Assembly (NCBI GenBank): GCA_001766825.1
Contig: LYOR01000002.1
Location: 129,924-193,923, forward strand
DNA: 64,000 bases
Source: Candidatus Syntropharchaeum butanivorans
GTDB taxonomy: Archaea > Halobacteriota > Syntropharchaeia > Syntropharchaeales > Syntropharchaeaceae
Direction: 5' to 3'
In this document: one piece after another, positions 6,334 through 45,756 of the stretch
Layout of the letters: every line of letters begins with the position of its first letter
Position numbering within the stretch: position 1 is the first letter of the stretch
Program-made: the position numbers and the translations under genes
The notes under the pieces: model-generated
What the model was told of the DNA's origin: nothing
The model's input: the letters and a program-made list of their open reading frames with translations, nothing else
Databases searched by the model: none

Positions 6334-7116
6334 ATGAAGATCCTGATATGTGGTAAGGGCGGCAGTGGAAAGAGCACAATAGCTGCATTGCTCGCAAAAT
6401 CAATGGCAAAGAGGGGATATCAGGTTCTTGTAATGGACAGTGACGAGTCGAACTTTGGATTGCATCGCCAGTTGGGCGTGAAGCTGCCGGAGGGCTTCAT
6501 GAACTACTTTGGCGGAAAAAAGACGATGATTGAGAGGATGTTTGCATCGATGCAGAAGGGTGAAGGAGGCACGGTTAAAATCTTTGATAAAAGGTGGACG
6601 TTCAGTGATATTCCAGAGGAATACTTGATGGAAAAGAATGGAATAAAACTGCTTGCTATCGGGAAAATTCATGATTTCAGAGAGGGATGTGCCTGCCCGA
6701 TGGGTGCACTCTCGCGTGAGTTTCTCAAAAACCTTGAGCTTGAAGATGATGAGGTTGTGATCGTTGACACCGATGCCGGGATCGAGCATTTTGGGAGGGG
6801 TGTGGAGGATGGGTGTGACCTGATCATCGCTGTTGTGGATCCATCCTATGAATCGCTTATGCTCTCAAAGAAAATCAACGAATTAGGGGATAGCATTGAA
6901 AAACCCGTTTATTTCGTGCTCAACAAAGTTGACAATGAAAGTAAGCGAGTTATGCTTGCATCTCTGGAGAAAAACAAAATTGCGGGGATTATTCCTGCGA
7001 ATGATGAGGTTTTCAAGGCTTGCTTGGCCGGGGATGAGCTTGATTTAGAGTTGGTAGAGATCGAAGAACTTACTGAGTTTTTAGAAGGTGTTAAAAATGA
7101 TATTAGAGCCAAATAA
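6334..7116 (+). CDS. CooC-family (SIMIBI/MinD-type) P-loop NTPase, putative metallochaperone
   Basis: P-loop GKGGSGKST. It carries a CxC motif (EGCACPMG) and DTDAGIEHFGRG, both shared with the bona fide CooC at 46492-47244. It starts 2 nt after the upstream stop. Confidence 0.75.
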   Translation: MKILICGKGGSGKSTIAALLAKSMAKRGYQVLVMDSDESNFGLHRQLGVKLPEGFMNYFGGKKTMIERMFASMQKGEGGTVKIFDKRWTFSDIPEEYLMEKNGIKLLAIGKIHDFREGCACPMGALSREFLKNLELEDDEVVIVDTDAGIEHFGRGVEDGCDLIIAVVDPSYESLMLSKKINELGDSIEKPVYFVLNKVDNESKRVMLASLEKNKIAGIIPANDEVFKACLAGDELDLELVEIEELTEFLEGVKNDIRAK

Positions 7117-7179: not shown

Positions 7180-8370
7180 ATGAGAAAGGTACTGATGCTC
7201 GTTTTCATCATCCTGATCGTATCGATCGTATCGGCAATTCCAGCAACGGCTCGTGAGATTCCCTTTGATACCAACGGAGACAGGATCATCTCAAAGGCAG
7301 AGCTATCAGGTGCGATCATATCCTATCTCAGGGCAGAATATCTTGGTGAAACCCTTGAAGCTCCGGATATCGATGGATTGAAGGAGATCGCATGGACATA
7401 CCTCCACTATCCCCGTACAGTCATGGACAGTGCTGGAAGAAATGTTACGGTCTATGCACCTGTTAAGCGGATCGTTGTTCTCAATGGTGACTGTGCAGAA
7501 GCTGTCAAGATACTTGGAGCAGATGAGAGGATCGTCGGGGTTGTGAAAGGCATAAAAACGAAGAAAGGGTATTACTTTCCAGAGCTGAATACCACACCAT
7601 CTGTTGGTAAATGGAATCGGCCAGATATAGAAGCAATCGTATCGCTTGATCCTGATCTTGTGATCGGCTATGTGAAATGGCCTGGCGCAGAGCTCGATGA
7701 GAAACTCGAAAAATTTGATATCCCCACTCTGAGGCTTGACTTTACAAATCAGAGGAAGTTGAAGGAGGAGGTTGAGAAACTGGGGTATCTCCTCGAGGAG
7801 GAGGAAAAAGCTGAGGAGTATATTGGATGGTATAGAGGATATGAAGAAGTTGTGAAGGAATTTGTTGAGAAACAGGATAAGAGACCCAGGGTCTTTCTTG
7901 AGCAGTCAAAAGATGTGGCAGATCTCAACGAGATAGGGACGTACGGTCCTGGTTCTGCATCAGATGAGTTATGCATGCTTGCAGGAGGAATCAATATCGC
8001 TCACAACCTATCAACAACCTTTCCACATGTTGAGGCAGAATGGGTACTCAAAGAGCATCCTGATATTGTTATAAAGCACAGGTATGTGGGCTGGGGCTGG
8101 AACAATACCGATGAACCCCGGGGGATCAAAGATGAGATCTTGAGCCGTCCCGGATGGAAAGACGTAATAGGTGAGGAAAACGTCTATGTCACAAGTTGTG
8201 AACCCCTCTATGGGCTGGATTCGGTGGTTGGACTCATATACTGGACAAAGATATTCCATCCAGCCTTTGATCTTGATCCAGAGGGTGTTTACAGGGAGTA
8301 CCTCGAGCGCTTCCTGGGCATAGAATATCCGGAAGGTCTGGTGGTCGTCTATCCACCTGTGGGGAGCTAA
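7180..8370 (+). CDS. ABC transporter substrate-binding protein, FecB/BtuF (siderophore/corrinoid) type, with N-terminal EF-hand-like extension
   Basis: Signal peptide is present. The core motif VKRIVVLNGDCAEAVKILGADERIVGV is typical of periplasmic binding protein class 8. The N-terminal DTNGDRIISKAE fits a DxNxDxxxxxxE Ca-loop. Confidence 0.75.
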   Translation: MRKVLMLVFIILIVSIVSAIPATAREIPFDTNGDRIISKAELSGAIISYLRAEYLGETLEAPDIDGLKEIAWTYLHYPRTVMDSAGRNVTVYAPVKRIVVLNGDCAEAVKILGADERIVGVVKGIKTKKGYYFPELNTTPSVGKWNRPDIEAIVSLDPDLVIGYVKWPGAELDEKLEKFDIPTLRLDFTNQRKLKEEVEKLGYLLEEEEKAEEYIGWYRGYEEVVKEFVEKQDKRPRVFLEQSKDVADLNEIGTYGPGSASDELCMLAGGINIAHNLSTTFPHVEAEWVLKEHPDIVIKHRYVGWGWNNTDEPRGIKDEILSRPGWKDVIGEENVYVTSCEPLYGLDSVVGLIYWTKIFHPAFDLDPEGVYREYLERFLGIEYPEGLVVVYPPVGS

Positions 8371-8395
8371 CCCCATCTTCTCTCGGTATTTGTTG

Positions 8396-9505
8396 ATGTC
8401 ACCAGAAACCATACCCAAAAAAGAAGCAGTAAAGGAAGAATACCGCAGGTTCATCAAAAAGAGAGCCGTATTCATAATTGCTCTCCTCATAATCACCCCC
8501 CTTCTCATAGGCTACTCTGCAACCCTTGGATCTGCAGACATCTCAGTAAAGGCTGCGTATGATGCGATTCTCCATAAGTTCTTCCCTGATCATTTCAATC
8601 CGGCTCCAACCTCGAAGCTTGATTCAGGTCAGATCGTAACAATTCTCTGGACACTGAGACTTCCCCGCATCGTTCTTGGGATCGTGGCAGGATGTGGACT
8701 TGCGATAGCAGGCGCGGTGATGCAGGCGATACTGAAGAACCCCCTGGCATCCCCATACACACTGGGTATCGCATCAGCTGCATCCTTTGGTGCATCACTT
8801 GCGATAATACTTGGGGTGGGGGTGGTTGGAGGGGAGCATCTCATCATCGCAAACGCCTTCGTATTCTCGATGATCGCAGCATCGCTCATCTATCTACTCT
8901 CAATAAGAAAGACGTCCCCTGAGACGATGGTGCTTGCAGGGATTGCGATCATGTACCTGTTTTCCGCGATGACATCGCTTCTCCAGTATGTGGGCGAGGC
9001 AGAGGAGGTTCAGGAGGTTGTTTACTGGATGTTTGGGTCACTTGGGAGGGCAAAGTGGAGCTCTGAGTTTCCATATGGAAATATAGGGATTGTTGGGATG
9101 ATACTTCTGATCACGATCCCCTATCTACTTTCAAAGTCATGGGACCTCAATGCGATGGGAAGCGGGGATGAGGCTGCTAAGAGCCTTGGTGTAAAGGTTG
9201 AACAGGTCAGGATCTCCTGCATGTTTGTTGCATCGCTTATAACAGCCTCGATCATATGCTTCACCGGCACAATCGGCTTCATAGGACTTGTCTGTCCACA
9301 TATCACAAGGATGGTGATCGGATCTGATCACAGGTTCCTTCTGCCCGGGACATGTCTGACCGGTGCGGTGCTTCTTCTTGCCGCAGATACACTTGCAAGA
9401 ACGATTGTTGCTCCGGTGATACTCCCTGTTGGAATCGTGACCGCTTTTATGGGTGTTCCATTGTTTGTGTATCTTTTGATGAGACAGAGGGGTGGTTACT
9501 GGTGA
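8396..9505 (+). CDS. ABC transporter permease, FecCD/BtuC family
   Basis: LRLPRIVLGIVAGCGLAIAGAVMQAILKNPLASPYTLGI is a FecCD signature, and the protein is polytopic. I chose the ATG at 8396; the track starts at TTG 8390. Confidence 0.85.
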   Translation: MSPETIPKKEAVKEEYRRFIKKRAVFIIALLIITPLLIGYSATLGSADISVKAAYDAILHKFFPDHFNPAPTSKLDSGQIVTILWTLRLPRIVLGIVAGCGLAIAGAVMQAILKNPLASPYTLGIASAASFGASLAIILGVGVVGGEHLIIANAFVFSMIAASLIYLLSIRKTSPETMVLAGIAIMYLFSAMTSLLQYVGEAEEVQEVVYWMFGSLGRAKWSSEFPYGNIGIVGMILLITIPYLLSKSWDLNAMGSGDEAAKSLGVKVEQVRISCMFVASLITASIICFTGTIGFIGLVCPHITRMVIGSDHRFLLPGTCLTGAVLLLAADTLARTIVAPVILPVGIVTAFMGVPLFVYLLMRQRGGYW

Positions 9506-10281
9506 AGCTTAGAATAAAGGATCTCACATTCAGCTATCCAAGCCGGGCAATCCTTGATGGCATCACGATCGAGATCGAGCCTTCAGAGTTCTTCGGCGTC
9601 CTGGGCCCAAATGGGACCGGTAAGACCACACTCATCAAGTGTATCGATACGATCCTGAAGCCCTATGGAGGATGCATCATGCTTGATGGGAAGGAGGTGA
9701 GGGAGTTTGATAAAAGAGAGCTTGCAAGAAGAATCGGGTATGTTCCGCAGAGTGCACCAAAGGGATTTCCAGCCACGGTCTTTGATACGATCCTCCTTGG
9801 TAGACGCCCTTACATCGGATGGAAGGTTACAGAGAGGGATATCGATAAGGTCCTTGAGATTGTGGAGCTTCTTCGGATAGAGGAGCTATCACTTCGTCCA
9901 TTCGATGAACTCAGTGGTGGGGAGAGGCAGAAGGTGCTTATTGCAAGGGCACTTGCCCAGGATCCTGAGGTACTCCTATTGGATGAACCCACCTCAAACC
10001 TTGATATAAAGCATCAGCTCGAGGTGATGGAGGTGATAAAGAGGATCACAAAGGACCATGGGATTCTTGCGATAATGGCAATACATGACCTTAATCTCGC
10101 GTCTCGCTATGCTGACCGGGTCGCAATGATGTACAGGGGAAGGATTGAAGCGGTTGGAGCTCCTGAGGAGGTGCTTACACCAGAAAATATAAGATCGGTC
10201 TATGGTGTTGAGGTCTCTGTGATGAACAATGGGGGAAGGCCCTACGTTCTTCCCCTAAGACCGGTGGAGGTTGAGGGATGA
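9502..10281 (+). CDS. ABC transporter ATP-binding protein (FepC/BtuD type)
   Basis: Walker A GPNGTGKTT, signature LSGGERQ and Walker B LLLDEP. The start is reassigned to GTG 9502, giving a GTGA overlap with the permease stop. The track's upstream extension (9352-9501) overlaps the permease and looks non-coding. Confidence 0.85.
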   Translation: MKLRIKDLTFSYPSRAILDGITIEIEPSEFFGVLGPNGTGKTTLIKCIDTILKPYGGCIMLDGKEVREFDKRELARRIGYVPQSAPKGFPATVFDTILLGRRPYIGWKVTERDIDKVLEIVELLRIEELSLRPFDELSGGERQKVLIARALAQDPEVLLLDEPTSNLDIKHQLEVMEVIKRITKDHGILAIMAIHDLNLASRYADRVAMMYRGRIEAVGAPEEVLTPENIRSVYGVEVSVMNNGGRPYVLPLRPVEVEG

Positions 10282-13200
10282 AGATTGGGTGTGTGATGTG
10301 GAGCGGATATATTGAGAGTATGGCAGAGGCAGCCTCTCAACTTGATTTTCTTGAGATGAACCTTAAATCCCTCAGGGATCTTGAGGATGAGCAAAAGAGA
10401 GAGGAGTTTCTTGATTATCTCAAGAGGGAGGCTGATGCGATTCTTGTGCTTCACTCAGGCTTTAATGGAACGCTTGATGAGATACTATCTCAGGTGAGAG
10501 ATAAACTCATAATAAGCTTTGGCTACACAGCCCCATTTCTCTCTCCCAGGATAAGCCCTGAGCAGGCAAGTACAGTCTATCGCTATCTCCGGCTTGGTGG
10601 GGTTGAGAATCTTAAAAATGCACTTCTTTACATAGCAAGGGAGTTTTTCGGTATTGATATAGAGGTTGAGCCTCCAGCAGAGACTCCATGGGAGGGGATA
10701 TACCATCCCAATAGCCCCACACCGTTCTACTCGATTGAGGATTACATCGAGTGGTATGGAAAAGAAAGGATAGAGAAAGCTCCCACGGTTGGGATAATCT
10801 TCTACAAGACGCACCTTGTTATAGACGATCTTGAGGTTGAGGATGCACTTATTGAGGCCTTAGAGGGGCGAGGGCTTGGAGTTATCCCGGTATTCTCATG
10901 GGGTTTTCCAAACAGGGAGTTTGAGATTGAGGGAAACGATGCAGTTATAGAGAAGTTCTTTATGAGGGATGGTAAGCCCCTTATAGATCTATTAATCGAT
11001 CTTCAGTCATCTTTTCTCATACATACAGGTGATAGGAGCATTCTCAGCAGGATGGACGTTCCGATCATAAAGGGAGTGATAGCATACCACAGATCAGAGG
11101 ATGAATGGCGAGAAGATGAGCATGGGCTTGGTGGGGAGCTTGTATGGTCTGTTGTCATGCCTGAGTTTGAGGGGATAATAGAGCCACTTGTTGCAGGTGC
11201 GAGGGTCAGGGAGAGAATAGAAGGTGCTACATCTGAGCGTTTCTCTCCAATCCCTGAAAGAATCTCTCATCTTGCAGATAGAGTTCTAAAATGGGTGAAT
11301 CTCAGGAAAAAACCGAAAAATAAGCGTAAAATCGTCTTTATACTCCACAACAACCCATGTGCCGGGGTTGAGGCGAATGTTGGTGCAGGATCGAACCTTG
11401 ATACGCTTGAAAGCCTTGCAAGGGTTCTCAAGCGGATGAGAGAGGAAGGCTACTCGATAGAAGATCTACCATCTGATGGAAAAGACCTTATAGACCGGAT
11501 AATGGATAAAAAAGCGATATCTGACTTCAGATGGACATCTGTTGATGAGATTGTGAGAAAAGGCGGTGCAATTTGCCTTGTTGATGAAAAAGAGTACAGG
11601 TCATGGTTTGATGAGCTTCCAGATGATGTAAGGGAGAGAATGATAGAGAGCTGGGGAGATCCTCCCGGAGATGCGATGGTGCACCAGGGCAGGATCGTTG
11701 TGACAGGGATCGATCTGGGGAATGTGATTGTATCTGTCCAGCCAAAGCGAGGGTGCGCTGGGGCAAGGTGTGATGGATCGGTCTGTAAGATCCTCCATGA
11801 TCCAGATATACCCCCAACGCATCAGTATATCGCATCATACAGGTTTTTTGAGAGAATATGGAAGGCAGATGCGATTGTGCATGTGGGAACCCATGGAAAC
11901 CTTGAGTTTCTGCCAGGAAAGTCTGTTGGGTTGTCTGAAGCTTGCTATCCAGATATAGCACTTGGAACCCTACCGAATCTCTACATCTACTCAGTTGACA
12001 ACCCATCTGAAGGTATCGTTGCAAAGAGAAGGTCGTATGCAGCTCTTGTGGATCACATGTTACCTGTAATGACTGCAAGCGGTACCTATGGAAGGCTAAA
12101 CGAGCTTGAACGACTTCTTGGAGAGTATGATCTTGCAAAGGTAGCAGATCACGCAAGAGCACATGCACTGGAGCATCTTATTCTCGAGGCGATCGATGAG
12201 GCGAATCTTGGGAAAGACATTGGACTCACAGAAGATATGACGTTTGACGAGGTTGTGAAGAGGGTGCATGACGTGATCTCGAGGATGAAGGGGTCTCTTA
12301 TAAATAAAGGGCTTCATATACTCGGAGAGGTCCCTGAAGGAGATAAAAGGGTTGAGCTCATAACCTCGATGATACGCTTCGATGAGGATGTAAAGAGGGC
12401 TTTTTCTGGAGACTGGGATCGCCTCAAGGCTTATGTTAGAGACGTTCTCGAGGGCAGGTGTGAAAATGATGAGATCACTCTCAAGGTTAAGGATCTCTCA
12501 GAAAGGATAGATCTCTGCAAGAATGAAATTGAGAGCCTTCTTCATGGATTTGATGGTGGATACATCGAGCCAGGTCCATCCGGGCTTCCAACCCGGGGTC
12601 GATGGGATGTGCTTCCCACAGGTAGAAACTTCTATACACTTGATCCAACAAGAATCCCGACCCGTGCTGCATGGAGAGTTGGCAGAAAGCTTGCAACAGA
12701 TCTTATAGAAAAATACGAACGTGAAACTGGTAGAATTCCTGAAAACTGCGGGATGATACTCTTCTCAACCGATATAACATGGGCAGATGGAGAAGAGCTT
12801 TCACAGATGCTTTACCTGATAGGGGTTGAACCTCGCTGGGATGAGGCCGGAAGGGTTAATGGATTCAGGATAATACCGCTTCATGAGCTTAAAAGACCAA
12901 GAATTGACATTACAGTGCGAATTAGTGGAATAATGAGAGATTCATTTATGGAGATAATCGAGCTTCTGGATGATGCGATAAGGGCAGTAGCTCAGCTTGA
13001 TGAACCACCTGAGATGAACTTCATAAGAAAGCATGCCTTGGAGCAGGTCAGTGAGGGATCGGACTGGGCAAGTGCTGCAACCCGGATATTTGGGTCAAAG
13101 CCTGGGACATACGGTGCCGGGGTTAACCTTGCAGTCTATGCATCGGCGTGGAAGGATGAGCACGATCTCTCAGATGTATTCGTTTATTGGAGCGGTTATG

Positions 13201-13907
13201 CATATGGAAAAGGGATTAAAGGAAAGGAATCACATGAAGAACTTCTGAATCAACTTAAGACTCTTGATCTATCCTTCAGATCCAATCCAACGGATGAGCA
13301 CGATCTCTTTGGATGCTGTTGCTACTTTGCATACCATGGCGGGATGACCGCTGCTGCACGCGCGCTTTCAGGAAGAGATGTCAGGGCTTACCACGGGGAT
13401 ACGAGAGATCCGGAGGATGTGCGAGTTACGGATCTTAAAGATGAGATAAGAAGGGTCGTGAGGACCAAGCTATTGAATCCAAAGTGGATCGAGGGGATGA
13501 AGGAACATGGATACAGAGGGGCATCTGAGATCTCAAAGCGAGTTACGAGGGTGTACGGTTGGCAGGCAACAACCCGGGAGGTTGATGACTGGATATTCGA
13601 TGATATAGCCAAGACATATATCCTTGATGATGATATGAGGGAGTTCTTTGAGGATAACAACCCATGGGCACTTGAGGAGATGGGAAGAAGGTTGCTTGAA
13701 GCCTGTGAGAGAGGATTGTGGGATCCTGATCCTGAGGTCCTTGATGAACTCAAGAAGCACTATCTTGAGATTGAGGGATGGATGGAGGAACGGATGGAGG
13801 GAATTGAGGGGGTTCAGGGTGGATCGATCGATATCTTTACGATGGAGGATGTTAAGGAGTGGAGGGAGAGGATGGAGAAGGTCAGGGGTAAGAGAAAAGA
13901 TTCATAA
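10278..13907 (+). CDS. cobN: CobN/ChlH-family chelatase large subunit
   Basis: 1209 aa. It contains VHVGTHGNLEFLPGK and overall CobN-like length and architecture. ATGA overlap with the ABC ATPase stop. Confidence 0.85.
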   Translation: MKIGCVMWSGYIESMAEAASQLDFLEMNLKSLRDLEDEQKREEFLDYLKREADAILVLHSGFNGTLDEILSQVRDKLIISFGYTAPFLSPRISPEQASTVYRYLRLGGVENLKNALLYIAREFFGIDIEVEPPAETPWEGIYHPNSPTPFYSIEDYIEWYGKERIEKAPTVGIIFYKTHLVIDDLEVEDALIEALEGRGLGVIPVFSWGFPNREFEIEGNDAVIEKFFMRDGKPLIDLLIDLQSSFLIHTGDRSILSRMDVPIIKGVIAYHRSEDEWREDEHGLGGELVWSVVMPEFEGIIEPLVAGARVRERIEGATSERFSPIPERISHLADRVLKWVNLRKKPKNKRKIVFILHNNPCAGVEANVGAGSNLDTLESLARVLKRMREEGYSIEDLPSDGKDLIDRIMDKKAISDFRWTSVDEIVRKGGAICLVDEKEYRSWFDELPDDVRERMIESWGDPPGDAMVHQGRIVVTGIDLGNVIVSVQPKRGCAGARCDGSVCKILHDPDIPPTHQYIASYRFFERIWKADAIVHVGTHGNLEFLPGKSVGLSEACYPDIALGTLPNLYIYSVDNPSEGIVAKRRSYAALVDHMLPVMTASGTYGRLNELERLLGEYDLAKVADHARAHALEHLILEAIDEANLGKDIGLTEDMTFDEVVKRVHDVISRMKGSLINKGLHILGEVPEGDKRVELITSMIRFDEDVKRAFSGDWDRLKAYVRDVLEGRCENDEITLKVKDLSERIDLCKNEIESLLHGFDGGYIEPGPSGLPTRGRWDVLPTGRNFYTLDPTRIPTRAAWRVGRKLATDLIEKYERETGRIPENCGMILFSTDITWADGEELSQMLYLIGVEPRWDEAGRVNGFRIIPLHELKRPRIDITVRISGIMRDSFMEIIELLDDAIRAVAQLDEPPEMNFIRKHALEQVSEGSDWASAATRIFGSKPGTYGAGVNLAVYASAWKDEHDLSDVFVYWSGYAYGKGIKGKESHEELLNQLKTLDLSFRSNPTDEHDLFGCCCYFAYHGGMTAAARALSGRDVRAYHGDTRDPEDVRVTDLKDEIRRVVRTKLLNPKWIEGMKEHGYRGASEISKRVTRVYGWQATTREVDDWIFDDIAKTYILDDDMREFFEDNNPWALEEMGRRLLEACERGLWDPDPEVLDELKKHYLEIEGWMEERMEGIEGVQGGSIDIFTMEDVKEWRERMEKVRGKRKDS

Positions 13908-18788: not shown

Positions 18789-19649
18789 TTATACCCCCAA
18801 ACCCGATCTTATCCCATCAAAGACTGCCAGAAACTGCTCGCGCCATTCATCAATTACTTTGACAAATGGAACACCCCGGGAGTAACTTATGGCAATCTCC
18901 TTCATGTACGGGATCTCAAGAAGGATCTCAATCCCCTCATCTTTGCAGTAATCATAAACCCCTCTGTCACCCATACCGGACCGGTTCACAACAACCCCAA
19001 AGGGGATTCCAAGCTCCCTCATCACCCCAACAGCAAGCTTAAGATCGTACAACCCAAAAGGTGTTGGCTCTGTGACAAGGATGCAGTAATTGCTACCATA
19101 CACAGAATGGATTACAGGACATGAAACACCAGGCGGAGCGTCGATTATGACCGTTTTATCACCATTTAACTCTCTCTTAACAGCCTTTATCAGAAGACTT
19201 GGCATTGGCTCACCGATTGCAAGCTCCCCATAGACCAGATCAATCTCACCACACCGCCCCTTTATAATCCTCCCTATCTCCTTCTCACCCTCCCTGATTG
19301 CACCCTCAGGACATACAAGCACACATCCACCGCATCCATGACAGAGATTGGGAAACAGGATCGTATCACCCTTAAGCCCCTTCTCTGGATGGGGGCCTAT
19401 CACAAAAAGTGCATTGTACGCACAGAACTCGGCACATTTTCTACAGAAGCTGCATCTGCCCTTCTCAATCAGAGGTATCATCGATGAGACGCTCTTTATC
19501 TCTTTTATATCTGGTTTGAGGAAGATATGAGCATCCGGCTCCTCAACATCACAGTCAAGAAGCTGGGCATCTTCGATTGAGAGTGCAAGGTTGACTGCAA
19601 CCGTCGTCTTCCCGGTTCCCCCTTTCCCGGATGCAACAGAGATTATCAT
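18789..19649 (-). CDS. MinD/Mrp-type P-loop ATPase with inserted 2x[4Fe-4S] ferredoxin domain
   Basis: P-loop SGKGGTGKTT. Two cysteine clusters are present: CSFCRKCAEFC and CHGCGGCVLVCP. Confidence 0.8.
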   Translation of the reverse strand: MIISVASGKGGTGKTTVAVNLALSIEDAQLLDCDVEEPDAHIFLKPDIKEIKSVSSMIPLIEKGRCSFCRKCAEFCAYNALFVIGPHPEKGLKGDTILFPNLCHGCGGCVLVCPEGAIREGEKEIGRIIKGRCGEIDLVYGELAIGEPMPSLLIKAVKRELNGDKTVIIDAPPGVSCPVIHSVYGSNYCILVTEPTPFGLYDLKLAVGVMRELGIPFGVVVNRSGMGDRGVYDYCKDEGIEILLEIPYMKEIAISYSRGVPFVKVIDEWREQFLAVFDGIRSGLGV

Positions 19650-19652
19650 GGT

Positions 19653-20198
19653 CTAAAATAGTGGATGAATCTCGTAATATGCATCATCCATACCCGGCCT
19701 TATCCAGGGGCTTATGAGCCCTGCACCCTTGAGCTCTGCGATAAGCGCGCCTGCATCCCTGATCCCAAAACCAGACGCGATATCAGCGATCCTGCTTGCA
19801 GATATCTTTCCCGAGTCAGCAGATCTTCTGATCCTATCGAAAAGAGCGGGCATTATCCCGGACAGAGGATCTTCTATCATTCTGAAGTACTCCCTTATCG
19901 CATACTCCCTATCCCACACACCTGTCTCTACTGCCCTCATCAGAGCAATCCTCACAACATTGGGGATGCTGTATCTACCCCCAAATGAGCGTTCACCACT
20001 CTTCCACGAGAGGCTTTCACCATCAGCCACGATGAGCCTTAAACCCTCTGCCTCGAGTATAACCTCATCTGTCTCCTCCCCAAAGATCTGCTCTATCTCC
20101 TCATGGGTGATTCCGTCCTCTATCGAGTGAAGAAGTGCAGAAATCTCCCTGAAGGACGCTGTAAATCCCCTTAATGCATCTTCAAGTCTGCCTGTCAT
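19653..20198 (-). CDS. Hypothetical protein (~181 aa), operon member
   Basis: The ORF is co-directional and its stop lies 3 nt before the MinD-Fd start. The start is uncertain: ATG at 20198, 20228 or 20273. I recognise no family. Confidence 0.4.
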   Translation of the reverse strand: MTGRLEDALRGFTASFREISALLHSIEDGITHEEIEQIFGEETDEVILEAEGLRLIVADGESLSWKSGERSFGGRYSIPNVVRIALMRAVETGVWDREYAIREYFRMIEDPLSGIMPALFDRIRRSADSGKISASRIADIASGFGIRDAGALIAELKGAGLISPWIRPGMDDAYYEIHPLF

Positions 20199-20469
20199 CA
20201 ATCCCCATCCTGACCCTGTATCCACCATCCTCACTGAAGCTGAGAATGAGGTATGCGCTCCTCCCTCTCCCAATCTCGTCTTCTATCATACTTCGGTATG
20301 CAGGAAGGTTCTCATCCTCAAGAAATCTAAGAAGAATCTCTATCTCCTCTTCTGACTCCCTATCTTCACACCCTGATACCATATACCTATCAACAGCCTT
20401 CCAGTACCGCCTTCTGGCAACAGTCTCGACACACAGGCCTCGTTCTGGCTTTATGATAAGTTCTTTCAT
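20182..20469 (-). CDS. Hypothetical protein (95 aa), operon member
   Basis: ATGA overlap with the upstream NifX-like stop (20466-20469). I recognise no family. Confidence 0.4.
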   Translation of the reverse strand: MKELIIKPERGLCVETVARRRYWKAVDRYMVSGCEDRESEEEIEILLRFLEDENLPAYRSMIEDEIGRGRSAYLILSFSEDGGYRVRMGIDDRQT

Positions 20470-20834
20470 ATCATACCGTGCCTGTGTTCCCTGCAGGCGT
20501 ACTCATAGCTTGCCGGCATGAGCCGCCCTTCCTGCCATGATCTTATCGCATCTCTCACTCTTCCAGACGCGCCGATATAGACCTCAATCCCAAACCTCTC
20601 AAACATACCTATCGCCCTTGGACCAAGCCCTGAACAGAGCATAACTTCAACCCCCTCTTTCGAGAGCATCTCTGGGGGATATCCGACACCTCCGAAGTGC
20701 TCGCTTGTATTTGATACCACCTTAACCTCTCCGCTCTCAAGATCAAGAATCGTGAACGTCGGCGCACGTCCAAAGTGCTCACATACTATATCATCCAGTC
20801 CGGCATCCCCATAGGTAGGCACACACACCTTCAT
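20466..20834 (-). CDS. NifX/NifB-C-terminal-like (dinitrogenase FeMo-cofactor biosynthesis fold) protein
   Basis: MKVCVPTYGDAGLDDIVCEHFGRAPTFTILDLESGEV...GVEVMLCSGLGPRAIGMFERFGIEVY matches the family pattern. A GGAGGTGA SD precedes the ATG at 20834. Confidence 0.75.
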   Translation of the reverse strand: MKVCVPTYGDAGLDDIVCEHFGRAPTFTILDLESGEVKVVSNTSEHFGGVGYPPEMLSKEGVEVMLCSGLGPRAIGMFERFGIEVYIGASGRVRDAIRSWQEGRLMPASYEYACREHRHGMI

Positions 20835-20839
20835 CAAGC

Positions 20840-21277
20840 TCACCTCCCAATCCTTCCTTCTAACCATCCGATCTTGACATCATCCACACCATCAAACGCA
20901 GGCACAAACGGCTTTATATCAATGAGTGGTGTTCCATCAACGAGATCTAACCCTCTAACCTTAAGTACATTATCCATCCTCTCAAGAAGCCTCACGATGG
21001 AGAGGCCTATGGGGTTTGGTCGATGTGGGGATCTTGTCGCAAAGACCCCATGCGGCCTTGCGTCCCATGGCGTTCTCACCATAAGTTTATACCCATCCGA
21101 TCTATCCAGCCAACAGAGAAGGATCAGATGCGAGAATCCCTCAACATCGGTTAACCCTTCCTCAAACTCCCTGAAGACCTCAACCTCACCTACCGTATCT
21201 GTGCCTGCACCCTGACGTGGACACTCAAGAACTGTCTTATAAGGGGTGTGGATTGTCCCGATCGGTTCAACCTCCAC
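20840..21277 (-). CDS. TsaA/TrmO-like (UPF0066) SAM-dependent methyltransferase-fold protein
   Basis: IGTIHTPYK...CPRQG...GFSHLILLCW...GVFATRSPHRPNPIGLSIVRLL...LDLVDGTPLIDIKP. Confidence 0.75.
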   Translation of the reverse strand: MEVEPIGTIHTPYKTVLECPRQGAGTDTVGEVEVFREFEEGLTDVEGFSHLILLCWLDRSDGYKLMVRTPWDARPHGVFATRSPHRPNPIGLSIVRLLERMDNVLKVRGLDLVDGTPLIDIKPFVPAFDGVDDVKIGWLEGRIGR

Positions 21278-21713
21278 CCTTTCTCCTCCTGTAATCTGCT
21301 ATCGCCTCTTTGAGTGTGTTTACCGCAAGCACAGGGCAGTGGAGATGTTCTTCTGGGAGATCACCAAGAACCGAGAGTATCTCCTCATCGTTGAGCCGGG
21401 ATGCCTCCTCGACCGTCTTACCCCTGATGAGCTCAGTCAGCACAGAGCCACATGCAATCGTGGGTCCACACCCATCTGTGAGAAACCTGGCCTCGATGAT
21501 CCTCTCATCCTCAATCTTGAGGTATATCTCCATCGTATCACCGCATGGACCTGTTATCCGCGAAGCCCCATCCGGATCTTCGATCATCCCCACATTCTTC
21601 GGGTTCAAAGCCTCCTCAACCACCCGTTCACTGAAAATCTCCAGCGCATCTCGGATTATTGCCTGCTGAATATCATCCACAAGCTCATCGAGAGTTGAGA
21701 CTTTCTCGGCCAT
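21267..21713 (-). CDS. NifU-N/IscU-like Fe-S cluster scaffold protein
   Basis: Conserved cysteines in GPCGD, GCGPTIACGS and HLHCPVLA. I chose the ATG at 21713 (MAEKVSTLDEL); the track starts at TTG 21752. Confidence 0.75.
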   Translation of the reverse strand: MAEKVSTLDELVDDIQQAIIRDALEIFSERVVEEALNPKNVGMIEDPDGASRITGPCGDTMEIYLKIEDERIIEARFLTDGCGPTIACGSVLTELIRGKTVEEASRLNDEEILSVLGDLPEEHLHCPVLAVNTLKEAIADYRRRKGGG

Positions 21714-21741
21714 CGCAACACCACGTGAAAGCTTCAACTCC

Positions 21742-22101
21742 CTACTTTCCAAGCTCCTCCAGCCGCTTTTTTATCTCTGCAAGCCGTTGCTCTATCATCC
21801 TCGCCTCTGCTTCGAGCATCTGGATCTCCTGCCCCTCTGTGAAAGTACCCGGGCCAAAGAACGGCGCAGAGAAAGCACCAAAACGAGGTCTAAAGTCCCT
21901 GCATGCCTCACTCATGGGATCTACCTCTTTATCCTTGAGAGAGCATCTGTTGGGTGGGACAAAGTATGCACAGGCACCGTGTGTGGCAGGAGGTACCTGT
22001 ACTCCTGGAGATACCCCTCCCCAGCCGGGAGAGTAACCAAATCTCATCCAGCCTGGGAGCCCTGTCATGTAGTACATATTTCTCCATCTGTATCCTGCCA
22101 T
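21742..22101 (-). CDS. DUF5320-like small protein, paralog a (aromatic/Gly/Pro-rich N-half, coiled-coil tail)
   Basis: MAGYRWRNMYYMTGLPGWMRFGYSPGW... and ...EIQMLEAEARMIEQRLAEIKKRLEEL. A GGAGGTGATGAGAAG SD is identical to that of paralog b. Confidence 0.7.
   Translation of the reverse strand: MAGYRWRNMYYMTGLPGWMRFGYSPGWGGVSPGVQVPPATHGACAYFVPPNRCSLKDKEVDPMSEACRDFRPRFGAFSAPFFGPGTFTEGQEIQMLEAEARMIEQRLAEIKKRLEELGK
21751..21832. repeat. 82-bp direct repeat copy A (coiled-coil coding tail)
   Basis: Identical to 22556-22637 except for one mismatch (21811 t versus 22616 c). Confidence 0.9.
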
Positions 22102-22117
22102 CTTCTCATCACCTCCT
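22074..22117. repeat. 44-bp direct repeat (SD + first 9 codons) copy A
   Basis: acatatttctccatctgtatcctgccatcttctcatcacctcct is identical to 22825-22868. Confidence 0.9.
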
Positions 22118-22123
22118 TTTTCT

Positions 22124-22291
22124 TTACGGTCTTACCATCCTTGATCCACACTTCGGACAGATCTCTTCATAGCACGGTACACCACGCTTGTGTGGAACGG
22201 TGGTTCCACAGCTTGGACACTTACACTCACCCCCGGGTCCAAGCCCTCTTCCACCCATTCTCCCCCGTCCTCCTCTACCCATTCCTGCCAT
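22124..22291 (-). CDS. Small (55 aa) Gly/Arg-rich zinc-ribbon protein, not in ORF track
   Basis: Hand translation codon by codon gives MAGMGRGGRGRMGGRGLGPGGECKCPSCGTTVPHKRGVPCYEEICPKCGSRMVRP*. It has two CxxC pairs. Its ATG (22291-22289) directly abuts the TGA (22294-22292) of the upstream ORF in the same frame. Its stop is 22 nt before the paralog a start. Confidence 0.65.
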   Translation of the reverse strand: MAGMGRGGRGRMGGRGLGPGGECKCPSCGTTVPHKRGVPCYEEICPKCGSRMVRP

Positions 22292-22468
22292 TCAGTACCA
22301 CCACCTGTACCAGTACAGGTGCCAGTATGGCAGGGGCATACCATACCAGGTGGTGCCGAACCCATAACCTCTCCACCACCACCTGGGAAGCCAGGGGAAT
22401 ACCCTGCAGAATGGATAGGGGTTGCCCCTCCACCCTCTTGCAGGCCACCAGAATCCTCTTCCAAACAC
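22292..22468 (-). CDS. Trp/Tyr/Arg/Gly/Pro-rich small protein (58 aa)
   Basis: VFGRGFWWPARGWRGNPYPFCRVFPWLPRWWWRGYGFGTTWYGMPLPYWHLYWYRWWY has 12 Trp in 58 residues. A GGAGGTGA SD lies 5 nt before GTG 22468. An alternative +1 frame (22132-22464) is also open, so the frame call is tentative. Confidence 0.4.
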   Translation of the reverse strand: MFGRGFWWPARGWRGNPYPFCRVFPWLPRWWWRGYGFGTTWYGMPLPYWHLYWYRWWY

Positions 22469-22546
22469 TTTTATCACCTCCTCAATCTACCAATACCAAA
22501 CCTCGTGTCAACCTCTCAGGATCGCCGGCCACCGCCGGAGAGATTC

Positions 22547-22852
22547 TCATCCTTTAAGCTCCTCCAGCCGCTTTTTTATCTCTGCAAGCCGTTGCTCTAT
22601 CATCCTCGCCTCTGCCTCGAGCATCTGGATCTCCTGCTCCTTTGTCACCCCTGCAGGCGCCATTGGTACCGCTGGTGGAGCCCACCCTGGAGCCTGCTGC
22701 TGCATCCACGCCATAAACCCGGGAATCTGCCCGGTCTGGCTCAGATACTGAGCCGCTGGAGGTAACCCTCCCCAGCCTGGAGAATAACCAAACCTCACCC
22801 ATCCAGGCAATCCTGTAAGGTAATACATATTTCTCCATCTGTATCCTGCCAT
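22547..22852 (-). CDS. DUF5320-like small protein, paralog b
   Basis: MAGYRWRNMYYLTGLPGWVRFGYSPGW...EIQMLEAEARMIEQRLAEIKKRLEELKG. Its 5' 44 nt and 3' 82 nt are (near-)identical to paralog a. Confidence 0.7.
   Translation of the reverse strand: MAGYRWRNMYYLTGLPGWVRFGYSPGWGGLPPAAQYLSQTGQIPGFMAWMQQQAPGWAPPAVPMAPAGVTKEQEIQMLEAEARMIEQRLAEIKKRLEELKG
22556..22637. repeat. 82-bp direct repeat copy B
   Basis: See copy A. Its first 28 nt recur at 23375-23402. Confidence 0.9.
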
Positions 22853-22868
22853 CTTCTCATCACCTCCT
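22825..22868. repeat. 44-bp direct repeat copy B
   Basis: Identical to 22074-22117. Confidence 0.9.
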
Positions 22869-23369
22869 GATCCTCTTTTTTATATCCTCAAGCTCATCTT
22901 CAAGCCTCTTTACCCGTTCAAGCAGATCATCCACATCTCTGCTTGCCATAGATGCCTGCTGCTCGATGTTAACCCTTCTACCCATCCCGCGCGTTCCAGG
23001 AGAGGTCCCCATCCCGAAGTGCCCCGGGACTGTTGCACCACCGGTCTCAAGAAGCTCCCCACGCTTATACATGTCGATTGCATCCCTGACCGTACCGTAG
23101 GCACCTGTTACAACCTTCACACCCGCAGCAGATAGTGTCTGGAACGCATTTGGTCCGATGTTCCCAGAGATGAGCACGTCCACACCTTTATTGACGATTG
23201 TCTGCGCTGCCTGAATCCCTGCACCACTTGCAGCCCCCACACTCTCATTGGGAACTGCCTCAAACGCCATGGTATCCGGATCAACGATCACAAAGTACCC
23301 GCATCTTCCAAACCTCGGGTCAACCTCTGCGTCAAGATCGCCGGCCACCGCGGTCACACATATCTTCAT
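22860..23369 (-). CDS. NifX/NifB-C-like protein fused to a Gly/Arg linker and DUF5320-like coiled-coil tail
   Basis: The N-terminal ~115 aa is MKICVTAVAGDLDAEVDPRFGRCGYFVIVD...GVDVLISGNIGPNAFQTLSAAGVKVV. The tail is GHFGMGTSPGTRGMGRR...DVDDLLERVKRLEDELEDIKKRIRR. ATGA overlap with the upstream stop. Confidence 0.75.
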   Translation of the reverse strand: MKICVTAVAGDLDAEVDPRFGRCGYFVIVDPDTMAFEAVPNESVGAASGAGIQAAQTIVNKGVDVLISGNIGPNAFQTLSAAGVKVVTGAYGTVRDAIDMYKRGELLETGGATVPGHFGMGTSPGTRGMGRRVNIEQQASMASRDVDDLLERVKRLEDELEDIKKRIRR

Positions 23370-23602
23370 CCTTTAAGCTCCTCCAGCCGCTTTTTTATCT
23401 CTCCAACCCGCTCTTCAAGGACCTTAAGCTCTCTCTCAAGAGCCTCTCTCTCATCCGACGGGCTTGGCCAGCCATATGGATATGGCATCACCTCATAGGG
23501 TTCTGGTATCCAGAGCCATGCATGAGGGCCAAACCCACACCTGCAAGGACCTCTTACCCAGACCACCCACATCACCTCAAGTGAATATACATTCATAATC
23601 AC
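23366..23602 (-). CDS. DUF5320-like small protein, paralog c (divergent aromatic N-half, same coiled-coil tail)
   Basis: ...MWVVWVRGPCRCGFGPHAWLWIPEPYEVMPYPYGWPSPSDEREALERELKVLEERVGEIKKRLEELKG. The last 28 nt of coding sequence are identical to paralogs a and b. The start may be the ATG at 23572 rather than 23602. Confidence 0.55.
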   Translation of the reverse strand: MIMNVYSLEVMWVVWVRGPCRCGFGPHAWLWIPEPYEVMPYPYGWPSPSDEREALERELKVLEERVGEIKKRLEELKG

Positions 23603-24010
23603 TTAAACCTTTCGGTGGGGTGGGCCTCTTCCCCCCTCCCGGGCCACGGAGGATACGCTTATACCACCACATATGGGACACCTCTCAAGAGGAGCTCCCC
23701 ACTCACTTCTGCAGTCATAACAGAGGTTTCTGAATCTGTAGTCCCCTCCACTCACCCGTATAGCCTTTCCATCAACAAGGGCCTCTGCTACCTTTCTTCG
23801 GGCCTCTTTCAGGATCCTGTGAAACGTCGGCTGGGAGATATCCATCAGCTTAGCTGCCTCGATCTGATCGAGTTGGAGAAGGTCCTTGAGCCTCAGACTC
23901 TCAAGCTCCTCTATCTTAAGCACGATCTCCCCCTTTGCCCTCCCCCCTGGCCTGAAGTACCTGAAATCAGGATGAAAGCCCACCCGTCTGCATCGCCTCG
24001 GTCTCGGCAT
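23603..24010 (-). CDS. DUF134 (UPF0251) putative DNA-binding protein with C-terminal zinc ribbon
   Basis: MPRPRRCRRVGFHPDFRYFRPGG is a DUF134 signature. An HTH-like segment is QIEAAKLMDISQPTFHRILKEARRKV. The C-terminus has CYDC...CPICGG. I chose the ATG at 24010. Confidence 0.75.
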   Translation of the reverse strand: MPRPRRCRRVGFHPDFRYFRPGGRAKGEIVLKIEELESLRLKDLLQLDQIEAAKLMDISQPTFHRILKEARRKVAEALVDGKAIRVSGGDYRFRNLCYDCRSEWGAPLERCPICGGISVSSVAREGGRGPPHRKV

Positions 24011-24133
24011 ATATGAATTTATATCCATAATAGCATTAAAGCTTGTCCCGGGTCTCTTCAGAAGCGTGTTTCAGGGTGAAGCCAGTAAACTTCTTAGGCT
24101 ACCATGCAGTAAGAAGATGGGGAGAGCTGGTCC
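24011..24133. promoter_or_regulatory. Divergent promoter region between the DUF134 operon and the PurM-like gene
   Basis: 123-bp gap. On the minus strand a TATA-like ttaatgctattat lies ~25-35 nt upstream of ATG 24010, which would give a short-leader or leaderless mRNA. Confidence 0.3.
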
Positions 24134-25474
24134 ATGGATCTTGAAGGGTATGCTAAAAGGATGCTCAGAGAGGGTATTGACCGGGAGGTTATCAAAGAAA
24201 AGCTTTTTCAGCGGGTTATTGAGGTAAAAAGAGATCGTATAGGTGAAGAAGAGGCGATAAATCTTGTTGAGGCCGTGATCAGGGAGGCATCCCTGACACT
24301 TGAACCCGGAGATGACCTGCTGAAATTCCCGGTCTCAGGCGTTACGATGGGGGAGCTTGGGGTTGGGTCAAGAGGCAGTGGAGATTTTTACTTCCATGAG
24401 AAGATAGGAGAGCTTCTGGGGGAGGGAGGGGCACTTATCGATTCGAGCATGCTTGATGATTCAGGTGTTGTTAAAGCCCGAGGTGAGCTGATTGTTCTCA
24501 CCGTTGATGGAATACACTCACGGCTCAGCGATTTTCCATTTATCGCAGGCTTTCACGTGGCCCGTGCAGCGCTCAGAGACATCTATGCTATGGGAGGGGT
24601 GCCGGTCGCTCTTGCATCAGATATACATCTCGCAGATGATGGTGATATCGGAAAGGTACTCGATCATATAGGGGGTATCGCGGCGGTATCAGAGCTTACG
24701 GGGGTCCCGCTCATAACAGGGAGTACGCTCAGAATCGGTGGTGATATGGTCATAGGAGATCGGATGACAGGTGCGGTTACAGCAGTCGGTATTGCAGATG
24801 TGATTACACCGAGAAAAGAGGCCAGAATCGGGGATCTGATCCTGATGAGTGAGGGTGCGGGTGGGGGGACGATTTCCACAGCGGCTCTCTACCATGGGGA
24901 GGAGGAGGTTGTCTGGGAGACGATGAATGTGAAGTTTATCGATGCATGCAGAACGCTCATCGATCATGGGCTTCTCAGTGAGATTCATTCGATGACCGAT
25001 GTTACAAATGGCGGAATAAGAGGGGATGCTGCTGAGATCGCAAAGGTTGCAGGGGTTAAGCTCCGCTTCTATGAGGATAAAATCAGATCGCTCGTAAACC
25101 CACGCGTTCTCAAACTTCTTGAAAAGTACGAGATAGACTATCTTGGGGTATCTCTTGATGCACTTCTTGTGATATGCCCTGAGGATGTTGCAGATCGCGT
25201 GCTTGGGACTGTGCGGGCTGCAGGTGTTAGAATGGACATTGTCGGAGAGGTTATCGAGGGCAAGGGATCAAGAATCGTTATAGACGGTGAGGAGCGGGAT
25301 TTTTCCCCAAAATTCAGGGAATCTGCCTACACACCCATCAAGAAGGTCGTTGGGGAAAGGGCATCTCGTGACTTTGAAGAGATGAAACGGAGTGTTGATC
25401 GGGTGGCAGGAGAAGTAAGAAGGAAGAAGGATTGGGTTGTTCGCAGGATCAGGGAGGCGAAAAATGGTTTATGA
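24134..25474 (+). CDS. AIR synthase-related protein (PurM/HypE/ThiL/SelD superfamily)
   Basis: LDDSGVV...DGIHS..., DIYAMGGVPVALASDI and MTDVTNGGIRGD are PurM-superfamily N- and C-domain motifs. Confidence 0.7.
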   Translation: MDLEGYAKRMLREGIDREVIKEKLFQRVIEVKRDRIGEEEAINLVEAVIREASLTLEPGDDLLKFPVSGVTMGELGVGSRGSGDFYFHEKIGELLGEGGALIDSSMLDDSGVVKARGELIVLTVDGIHSRLSDFPFIAGFHVARAALRDIYAMGGVPVALASDIHLADDGDIGKVLDHIGGIAAVSELTGVPLITGSTLRIGGDMVIGDRMTGAVTAVGIADVITPRKEARIGDLILMSEGAGGGTISTAALYHGEEEVVWETMNVKFIDACRTLIDHGLLSEIHSMTDVTNGGIRGDAAEIAKVAGVKLRFYEDKIRSLVNPRVLKLLEKYEIDYLGVSLDALLVICPEDVADRVLGTVRAAGVRMDIVGEVIEGKGSRIVIDGEERDFSPKFRESAYTPIKKVVGERASRDFEEMKRSVDRVAGEVRRKKDWVVRRIREAKNGL

Positions 25475-45608: not shown

Positions 45609-45756
45609 CAATCCAAATCTTTGGGGGTTGCTTAAATAGGTTTCGTAGGACTTCCTCCCTTTGAACAGATCCTGAGGCTGACACAGTTTTTGGGGGATGG
45701 TCTCACTGATCCAGTTCTGCAAATAAGAAAAGGAGGTGTAATGGGGTTAAACCTCT

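Follow-up and report, generated by a model that had tools for sequence, protein, structure and literature searches.

We analysed a stretch of 64,000 nucleotides (nt) of contig LYOR01000002.1 of Candidatus Syntrophoarchaeum butanivorans, a butane-oxidising archaeon (the window). Our subject is a set of 13 genes that occupy positions 18789-24010 (open reading frames, ORFs, to 24028) on the minus strand; all features of the operon given below lie on that strand. In reading order the genes encode a DUF134 protein, a small DUF5320 protein (DUF5320a), a tailed NifX-fold protein (NifX169), a second DUF5320 protein (DUF5320b), a tiny W-rich protein, a tiny six-Cys protein, a third DUF5320 protein (DUF5320c), an IscU-type scaffold, a TrmO-like protein (TrmO_N), a second NifX-fold protein (NifX133), members of the AF_2379 and AF_2141 families, and a MinD-type ATPase with a ferredoxin domain (MinD-Fd). 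Judged from its sequence, the core of this operon (DUF134, the two NifX-fold proteins and MinD with two [4Fe-4S] motifs) corresponds to an archaeal variant of the ORP/IssA-type modules. What we infer for the operon in general, at about an even chance, is the assembly, holding, and ATP-dependent hand-over or storage of inorganic iron-sulfur (Fe-S; metal-sulfide) species, with the small proteins as a matrix encoded in trans. Binding, transfer and regulation would all be part of this general reading.

The ORF map and the recomputed junctions bear out the 13 minus-strand genes and the junctions that had been described for them. ATGA start/stop overlaps join genes at 23366-23369 and 20466-20469, TGA abuts ATG at 22291/22292, and the AF_2379 and AF_2141 genes overlap by 17 nt. 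A 28-nt gap precedes the IscU gene, given a start at ATG 21713, and a 78-nt gap precedes the W-rich gene, given a start at GTG 22468, before which stands GAGGAGGTGA. All junctions in the operon fall within -28 to +78 nt, and a Shine-Dalgarno-like GGAGGTGA lies upstream of many internal genes. There is no intergenic run of five Ts (T5) in the operon; the sole T5 run on the coding strand falls within the MinD ORF. The only gap with room for an internal promoter is the 78-nt gap, which holds a gene relic, and it contains no AT-rich box. Consensus scans of the operon return promoter-like sites (5 versus 5.4) and terminator-like sites (4 versus 3.4) at chance level, for bacterial models and an archaeal host.

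The 13 genes look like one transcription unit because they share one strand, have tight junctions, contain no internal terminator signals and are preceded by a single promoter footprint conserved in three genomes. This supports the single unit of the original prediction. An independent Joint Genome Institute (JGI) metagenome contig (L018) is collinear with window positions 23546-22087 at 98.9% identity. Hence the arrangement is not an assembly artefact.

The promoter footprint (24011-24045) emerges when the region is aligned with the upstream regions of L004, the corresponding locus of another Syntrophoarchaeum, and of L005. About 35 nt before the DUF134 start codon (ATG 24010) hardly vary among three genomes with saturated synonymous sites; the sequence farther upstream is not conserved among the same three genomes. 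Within the footprint we find a TATA-like TTTAATGC at 24033-24040 (-30 to -23 from the ATG; TTTAAT(G/A)C across genomes, centred near -27). A near-palindrome, TGGATATAAATTCA, at 24014-24027 abuts the start codon and has the cross-genome form TGRAT-N4-ATTCA. These elements suggest a leaderless-type start with a candidate operator, that is, a putative regulator site.

The first gene (23603-24010) encodes a putative regulator, a DUF134 (UPF0251) protein of 135 amino acids (aa). It scores 90.4 bits against PF02001 (threshold 27), and its translation carries the MPRPxxCRR motif of the family. The protein begins with MPRPRRCRRV, continues with a sigma-70 region-4-like helix-turn-helix and ends in a CxxC...CxxC ribbon. 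DUF134 has 872 homologues, and DUF134 genes adjoin NifX/MinD genes in archaea and bacteria. Across the 80 metagenome loci described below, 19 of 39 DUF134 genes share the strand of the W-rich gene and the remainder are divergent. In the searchable literature, no member of either DUF134 or DUF5320 has been characterised. An AIR-synthase-family gene at 24134-25474, distantly ThiL/SelD/HypE-like and under all equivalog cut-offs, diverges from the promoter region of DUF134; as a neighbour it is not conserved in L004 or L005.

NifX169 (22860-23369) is a NifX-fold protein of the ORP/MTH1175 type (PF02579, 91.5 bits). Its NifX fold spans residues 1-109; a short Gly/Arg/Met linker then leads to a coiled coil, DLLERVKRLEDELEDIKKRIRR. 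Among PDB sequences it matches TM1290 (1rdu, 1e-21), the ORP of D. gigas (2wfb, 1.3e-21, aligned over residues 2-107) and MTH1175 (1eo1, 3e-17). Its orthologues carry longer, GMGRG-rich tails with many Met-Gly repeats, end in the same coiled coil and are annotated as DUF5320. NifX133 (20466-20834) has 122 aa when started at ATG 20834 (ORF to 20867). It scores 79.5 bits against PF02579 and belongs to the TM1816/PH0822 type (1o13/1t3v match, 2e-16), with CEHFGRAP near its N-terminus and ACREHRHG at its C-terminus. The best NCBIfam match of both NifX domains is MrpORP's Di-Nase domain; the MrpORP model, NF041136, is matched over this part only (50.5 and 30.7 bits, cut-off 450).

The same fold family (Pfam Nitro_FeMo-Co) contains NifX, NafY and the C-terminal domain of NifB. 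Unlike these Nif carriers, the proteins here have non-Nif closest solved relatives (TM1290, ORP, MTH1175, TM1816) and no radical S-adenosylmethionine (SAM) fusion. No nitrogenase subunit occurs among the window ORFs of at least 400 aa, as had been stated for the nitrogenase structural genes, and the cluster has no radical SAM gene. We therefore reject a nitrogenase-linked reading of the window.

The operon ends with the MinD-Fd gene (18789-19649), which encodes a P-loop ATPase of 286 aa with CbiA, ParA and Fer4 Pfam matches. Its Walker A motif (GKGGTGKT) is deviant, and two CxxCxxCxxxC motifs lie in an inserted ferredoxin domain, an architecture like that of Orp3 and Orp4. Orthologues occur in L004, L005, L008, L015 and L016. 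Pfam and NCBIfam confirm the families that had been recognised beforehand (DUF134, two Nitro_FeMo-Co, NifU_N, TrmO_N, CbiA/ParA with Fer4, and DUF5320).

The NifX-fold proteins and MinD-Fd resemble a system known from bacteria. The ORP complex of D. vulgaris contains Orp3 and Orp4 (MinD-like, two [4Fe-4S] motifs each), Orp5, Orp8 (ORP itself) and Orp9, an Mrp-NifX fusion called MrpORP (PMC6345978, PMC8359166). The proteins have been purified as a complex, Fe-S transfer from Orp9 to Orp3, Orp4 and Orp8 has been obtained in vitro, and an archaeal origin of the system has been proposed (PMC6345978, PMC8359166). The operon is like the ORP clusters of Desulfovibrio (D. vulgaris Hildenborough, D. 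alaskensis G20) in several respects: an ORP-type NifX-fold protein (here NifX169), another NifX domain that is of the MrpORP Di-Nase type and has a Cys/His motif, a MinD-type ATPase carrying two [4Fe-4S] motifs, a small protein rich in Cys within the cluster, and a restriction to anaerobes. The two differ in layout and content. ORP genes form sigma-54/OrpR-dependent divergent operons, whereas here a single co-directional operon has DUF134 as its sole regulator-like gene. The operon also adds IscU, TrmO_N, AF_2379 and AF_2141, and the literature that we reached does not mention its W-rich, YRW-DUF5320 (DUF5320b) and six-Cys proteins as parts of the ORP complex. The original prediction held the system to be undescribed and without an experimentally defined function. 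For the core this does not hold: it matches the experimentally studied Desulfovibrio ORP cluster, and the NifX family also includes IssA.

IssA (SipA, PF2025) of P. furiosus combines an IPR003731 domain and a Gly-rich tail of cationic and aromatic character and serves in thioferrate storage (PMC5524996). The tail (Gly 21%, Pro 16%, aromatic 20%, cationic 10%, isoelectric point (pI) 10.7, one Cys) is proposed to wrap the anionic thioferrate (PMC5524996). In M. voltae, two clustered IssA homologues are up during growth on FeS2 (PMC8516115). NifX169 is alike in that a PF02579/IPR003731 domain is followed by a Gly- and Arg-rich tail, and MTH1175, the model used for the IssA domain, is matched with E = 3.4e-17.

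The ligand of such proteins need not contain iron. An alternative is that the operon handles, stores or detoxifies thiomolybdate/thiotungstate or copper, with Met/Gly-rich tails binding Cu(I), in the manner of the [S2MoS2CuS2MoS2] cluster of D. gigas ORP. NifX169 is as close to this ORP as to any solved structure, the orthologue tails have their Met-Gly repeats, and Dde_3197 and Dde_3198 of D. alaskensis respond to copper-surface exposure (PMC10533852). The cluster contains no Mo/W transporter or pterin gene, however, and the evidence from several other sides points to iron: IscU, the ferredoxin fusions, the DtxR-type regulator of a related cluster, and the co-regulation of Dde_3197-Dde_3199 with feoA and flavodoxin (PMC10533852). 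In vitro formation of ORP's Mo-Cu cluster is possible, and hence this cluster is perhaps not the physiological ligand. We regard this alternative as quite improbable.

Between these recognisable enzymes and carriers lie five tiny proteins. The W-rich protein (22292-22468) has 58 aa from GTG 22468 (ORF to 22477) and the core motif GNPYPFCRVFPWLPRWWW. Its composition is extreme: Trp 21%, aromatic residues 41%, Gly 14%, Pro 12%, cationic residues 12%, no acidic residue, one Cys and a pI of 10.4. The monomer is predicted to be disordered (predicted local distance difference test, pLDDT, 51). Members of the family have 49-102 aa and read MPRGFGRG...GRGMGNPYPFCRxFPWLPRWWW followed by a Tyr/Pro-rich end. 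The motif has nine invariant positions (N, P, Y, R, W, P, R, W, W) and a Cys with a conservation of 90% or more. The family comprises at least 44 clusters and is spread over many archaeal lineages, with a member in a Calescamantes bacterium.

The six-Cys protein (22124-22291) is a Gly/Arg-rich ribbon protein of 55 aa. Its motif, GPGGxCxCPxCGxxxPHxxGVxCYxxxCPxCGxxMxR, is common to archaea and bacteria (L014 7810-8028, L017 5239-5433), with homologues in a Calescamantes bacterium and in ANME-1. The protein might be the counterpart of Dde_3197, a small [2Fe-2S] protein that has been reported for the Desulfovibrio ORP operon. Neither the six-Cys nor the W-rich family has a Pfam model in the copy that we used or a match to PF17253. 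They are tied to DUF5320 only via fusion proteins.

The remaining three tiny proteins belong to or resemble DUF5320 (PF17253, cut-off 27). DUF5320a (23366-23602; 26.0 bits) has 66-78 aa depending on the start codon, with an aromatic/Pro-rich N-terminus and a coiled coil ending in ...EIKKRLEELKG; its relatives match the coiled coil only. It is lineage-specific, absent in L004 and L005 and present in L018. We considered whether its N-terminus is a W-rich motif and rejected this, as there is no match. DUF5320b (22547-22852, 101 aa) passes the cut-off with 29.5 bits. It is of the YRW type, with MAGYRWRNMYYLTGLPGWVRFGYSPGWGG... followed by a Pro/Gln-rich segment and the coiled coil KEQEIQMLE...IKKRLEELKG, and has orthologues in L004, L005 and L014-L017. 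DUF5320c (21742-22101, 119 aa; 24.0 bits) is a chimera. Its 5' 113 nt (88% identity, repeat family D2) and 3' 90 nt (97%, D1) are copies of DUF5320b, and the Cys-containing core between them is a separate 80-aa gene in L004. NifX169 and all three DUF5320 proteins share the C-terminal heptad segment, also at the DNA level (repeat families D1 and D3). The short-read contigs of this organism break in the DUF5320 repeats (window 22005-22868 and 21742-22101), and L002 begins at 21780.

Fusions link these modules. W-motif and DUF5320 coiled coil are joined in P0221 and P0231, YRW, W-motif and coiled coil also occur in one protein, and at 5 of 58 strict-motif loci (L040, L058, L074, L078, L093) a 2x[4Fe-4S] ferredoxin precedes the W-motif in the same chain. 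The small proteins have the chemical make-up of the IssA tail (Trp, Gly, Arg and Pro, a high pI and one Cys), along with predicted disorder. IssA carries this tail in cis, whereas the tail-like chemistry here resides mostly on separate gene products.

The tiny ORFs are real genes under purifying selection. The ratio of nonsynonymous to synonymous substitution rates (dN/dS) is 0.03-0.08 for the six-Cys gene against L004 and L005 and about 0.14 for DUF5320b. For the W-rich gene against L004, the proportion of nonsynonymous differences (pN) is 0.20 and that of synonymous differences (pS) 0.74, which is saturated.

The same region has also been rearranged. The gap in front of the W-rich gene was thought to contain a gene relic, and alignment bears this out: the roughly 60 nt that follow the stop codon of DUF5320b can be aligned with the 5' end of the NifX169 gene, given one indel of 3 nt and one of 4 nt. 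The relic (22484-22550; repeat families D8 and D9) reads MRISPAVAGDPERLTRGLVLVD* and loses its frame after about 11 codons. The independent contig L018 has it as well. Together with DUF5320a and the chimeric DUF5320c it shows recent rearrangement, as might be expected if there were no functional unit at all, only genes packed on one strand with small ORFs that are not all real. Accessory genes that differ between lineages would fit such an explanation too. Yet gene order and strand are kept from phylum to phylum, purifying selection acts on the tiny ORFs, and the modules are linked by domain fusions. We give this explanation next to no credence. A role in anti-phage defence or an origin as a phage-derived module is rejected, since there is no PADLOC or PHROGs match.

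How widely the operon is conserved becomes clear from related loci. In L004 the same order is kept at 46-70% protein identity: DUF134, tailed NifX, W-rich, six-Cys, the 80-aa gene, YRW-DUF5320, a CoA-disulfide-reductase-like gene, IscU, TrmO_N, NifX, radical SAM, AF_2141, MinD-Fd, radical SAM and a second MinD-Fd. Related clusters occur in a Methanosarcinales metagenome-assembled genome, Theionarchaea, Archaeoglobi, ANME-1, a Calescamantes bacterium and Caldicellulosiruptor. For a broader view we scanned metagenomes with the W-rich motif as anchor, which yielded at least 209 relatives. We kept 80 loci, annotated them locally with phmmer and based the following counts on the 36 loci of at least 5 kb. 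NifX, DUF5320 coiled-coil genes and MinD-Fd/Mrp are each present in 31 of the 36 loci, nearly all on the same strand. The six-Cys protein follows with 21 and DUF134 with 19. The other genes are much rarer: IscU is found at 7 loci, radical SAM at 5, TrmO at 3, AF_2141 at one and AF_2379 at none.

From these counts, the recurrent core consists of DUF134, NifX, the small proteins and MinD-Fd/Mrp. IscU, TrmO, AF_2379 and AF_2141 are lineage-specific add-ons. The neighbourhood is conserved across archaeal and bacterial anaerobes, in the related clusters and at the loci anchored on the W-rich motif, which is the check that had been proposed for it. The implied unity of all 13 genes finds no support in the same counts, as only the core recurs widely. 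Two further observations concern the related clusters. In the Archaeoglobi cluster L016, a gene for a DtxR-type iron-dependent repressor (7731-8099) lies between two MinD-Fd genes. A CoA-disulfide-reductase-like flavoprotein gene is found within several clusters (L004 8326-9660, L014 6431-7789, L041, L088), and no homologue of it was found in the window. We take this flavoprotein to be of the same family as the sulfur-reducing NSR of Pyrococcus; its genes hint at a supply of sulfide.

Among the add-ons, the IscU protein (21267-21713) has 148 aa from ATG 21713 (ORF to 21752), as does its orthologue in L004. It is of the IscU/NifU-N scaffold type (PF01592, 117 bits), and its motifs PCGD, GCGPTIAC and HLHCP contain all scaffold ligands (three Cys, an Asp following the first of them, and a His-Cys pair). 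With 125 bits it stays below the equivalog cut-off of TIGR03419 (187.9), and it is also under the cut-offs of TIGR01999 and TIGR02000. Hence we call it a scaffold-type protein and not a named orthologue. TrmO_N (20840-21277, 145 aa) is a TrmO/TsaA-like single-domain beta-barrel of the archaeal AF_0241 type (PF01980, 130 bits; TIGR00104, 152.6 bits versus 93.25; PDB 2nv4, 1e-36). It is without the bacterial C-terminal domain and aligns only to residues ~1-150 of proteins of 237-247 aa. Its gene adjoins NifX in L004 and L005.

A scaffold, a SAM-binding TrmO_N domain and two proteins of the fold that carries NifB-co and FeMo-co (PMC5524996) in one operon could also form a dedicated maturation line for a single complex metallocofactor or target enzyme, in the manner of a split NifB/NifX pathway. 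The NifX proteins would then be transient carriers, MinD-Fd an insertase like NifH, CfbC or HypB-type NTPases, and TrmO_N a SAM-binding helper. Within orthologous clusters, radical SAM genes do stand beside NifX and MinD-Fd. We rate the chances of such a line as low. The window's own cluster is devoid of a radical SAM gene, no nitrogenase or other obvious client enzyme is adjacent, and the radical SAM proteins of related clusters match no NifB model. Radical SAM and TrmO are moreover rare among the 36 loci, and the abundant low-complexity cationic proteins would be left unexplained.

The other two add-ons, of 95 and about 181 aa, were initially reported to match nothing. Both do have precomputed family matches. 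The first (20182-20469, 95 aa) belongs to AF_2379 (PF27306). It has no match in PDB, NCBIfam, PHROGs or PADLOC and a single homologue, in L006, beside a gene for an MGS/IMP-cyclohydrolase-like domain. The second (19653-20198, 181 aa) belongs to AF_2141 (PF27374) and carries the conserved motif LIAELKGAGLISP. By profile comparison the two families are unrelated. Both are linked to a purH-N-like domain: in P0124 an AF_2141 relative is fused behind an MGS/IMP-cyclohydrolase-like domain, and in L006 (9988-10787) a free-standing domain of this kind is followed by the AF_2379 gene.

An exhaustive search of 1.84 billion proteins gives 80 representatives of the AF_2141 family (E <= 0.001). The AlphaFold2 model, built from an alignment of 35 sequences, reaches a pLDDT of 93.7 and looks like a tandem winged-helix protein. 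Foldseek finds only partial winged-helix matches of ArsR/MarR/Fur/CodY type, none with E < 0.001; for the whole model it finds none, nor do sequence and profile searches of PDB sequences. A scan of genome contigs with a narrow AF_2141 alignment returned 5 loci of close relatives. At every locus examined, AF_2141 is beside or within about 1.3 kb of a gene for a MinD/ParA/Mrp ATPase. In the window and in L004, AF_2141 is followed by MinD-Fd. In L050 it is inside a NifX/Mrp cluster, about 1.3 kb from the nearest ATPase gene. At four ANME-1/Methanosarcinales loci (L010 3753-5788, L011, L012, L013), a ParA/CbiA ATPase, AF_2141 and DUF2284, predicted to bind metal, form a fixed triad. A close homologue of the triad ATPase is present in the window at 6334-7116 (E = 5e-91) with no AF_2141 adjoining it; a DUF2284 homologue was not found in the window. 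Other P-loop genes of the window have neighbours that encode 183 and 293 aa; we compared these with AF_2141, and they are not similar to it.

This pairing raises the possibility that the operon encodes a MinD/ParA-type positioning or cell-division-related system. MinD-Fd would put a cargo in its place in the cell, AF_2141 would be the partner of the ATPase, the small proteins would be adaptors as known from ParA-type cargo positioning, and the metal clusters would be redox sensors only. The closest solved relatives of MinD-Fd are indeed cell-division MinD proteins, and the small proteins are predicted to be disordered and to have coiled coils. A putative role in cell division is described for the ORP complex of Desulfovibrio; there, MrpORP has a polar location, and amphipathic helices like those of MinD are present in Orp3 and Orp4 (PMC6345978, PMC8359166). 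The cell-division link of ORP is indirect, though, since it comes from the morphology of an orpR mutant. In our cluster there is no MinC, MinE, FtsZ or CdvB gene, the whole AF_2141 model matches no known ParA/MinD partner in Foldseek, and the presence of IscU and of NifX folds, like the ferredoxin fusions, speaks for cluster chemistry. We think a positioning system unlikely.

The Fe-S assembly and hand-over that we prefer could proceed as follows. IscU would assemble Fe-S units. The two NifX-fold proteins would hold an anionic inorganic metal-sulfide species non-covalently, most likely Fe-S and possibly Mo/W-S. Through their common heptad segment (...L..L.EIKKRLEEL), NifX169 and the three DUF5320 proteins may join into a hetero-oligomer. 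The Gly/Arg/Met linker and the W-rich and six-Cys proteins would form a cationic aromatic matrix round the anionic species, as proposed for the tail of IssA. MinD-Fd, with AF_2141 as a putative partner, would draw on ATP, and perhaps on electrons, for loading, releasing or handing on the cluster. The conserved palindrome at the start of the DUF134 gene may be the site from which DUF134 regulates the operon.

A more specific version goes further. Tailed NifX and the W-rich, six-Cys and YRW-DUF5320 proteins could build a coiled-coil-joined body that both templates and stores an inorganic iron-sulfide polymer, a thioferrate store like IssA with its tail in trans, and MinD-Fd with AF_2141 could load, mobilise or position this body. 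We consider this version doubtful. If it is true, the widespread ORP-type clusters of anaerobes would be machines for the storage and mobilisation of Fe-S minerals.

Several points weigh against the Fe-S reading and the correspondence to ORP and IssA on which it builds. The role of the ORP complex is "still unclear", and cell division is what has been suggested for it in print (PMC8359166). The ORP of D. gigas binds a Mo-Cu sulfide cluster rather than Fe-S. ORP has two paralogous MinD-ferredoxin ATPases, Orp3 and Orp4, and the window only one (18789-19649); for Fer4, the other MinD/ParA-like genes of the window (6334-7116, 46492-47244) have no Pfam match. Two MinD-Fd copies do occur in L004, L008, L015 and L016. 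ORP further has an Mrp/NBP35-NifX fusion, whereas NifX is free-standing here and there is no Mrp gene in the cluster. The likeness of the small proteins to IssA, Orp5, Orp7 and Dde_3197 is judged from composition and architecture. The IssA clade as published (Vaccaro et al. 2017) is defined by a pI of 9 or above, fewer than 5 Cys residues and a Gly content of at least 20% over the final 40 residues. NifX169 falls outside it, with a pI of 5.2, 2 Cys and 2% Gly in this segment. In its orthologues Gly reaches 17-26% over the whole tail, which still ends in the coiled coil. Finally, the promoter and terminator tools behind part of the operon argument are bacterial and uninformative for an archaeon.

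The demand for iron-sulfur clusters is very high in anaerobic archaea that produce or oxidise alkanes. Work on the ORP complex goes back to 2011 and has not, to our knowledge, settled its function, and IssA is known from a single organism. A fixed set of tiny, predicted disordered, Trp/Arg/Gly-rich proteins accompanies the ORP-type NifX and MinD-ferredoxin genes. One of these proteins has a near-invariant 18-residue W-rich motif, at times fused to a ferredoxin, and the chemistry of the set mirrors that of the IssA tail. These observations link the ORP and IssA lines of research and supply concrete proteins for co-expression tests. In the searchable literature we find no description of the conserved small-protein set and its motif, of the ferredoxin fusions, or of the pairing of AF_2141 with a MinD/ParA ATPase. 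Among the small genes are real ones of fewer than 100 codons that have no Pfam model in the copy used and are mostly without a name or domain in public records.

Elsewhere in the window, genes for CcmF and CcmE (cytochrome c maturation) lie at 43309-45722. The region 7180-13907 encodes a FecCD-type ATP-binding cassette transporter and a periplasmic binding protein, followed by a CobN/Mg-chelatase-like protein of 1209 aa.

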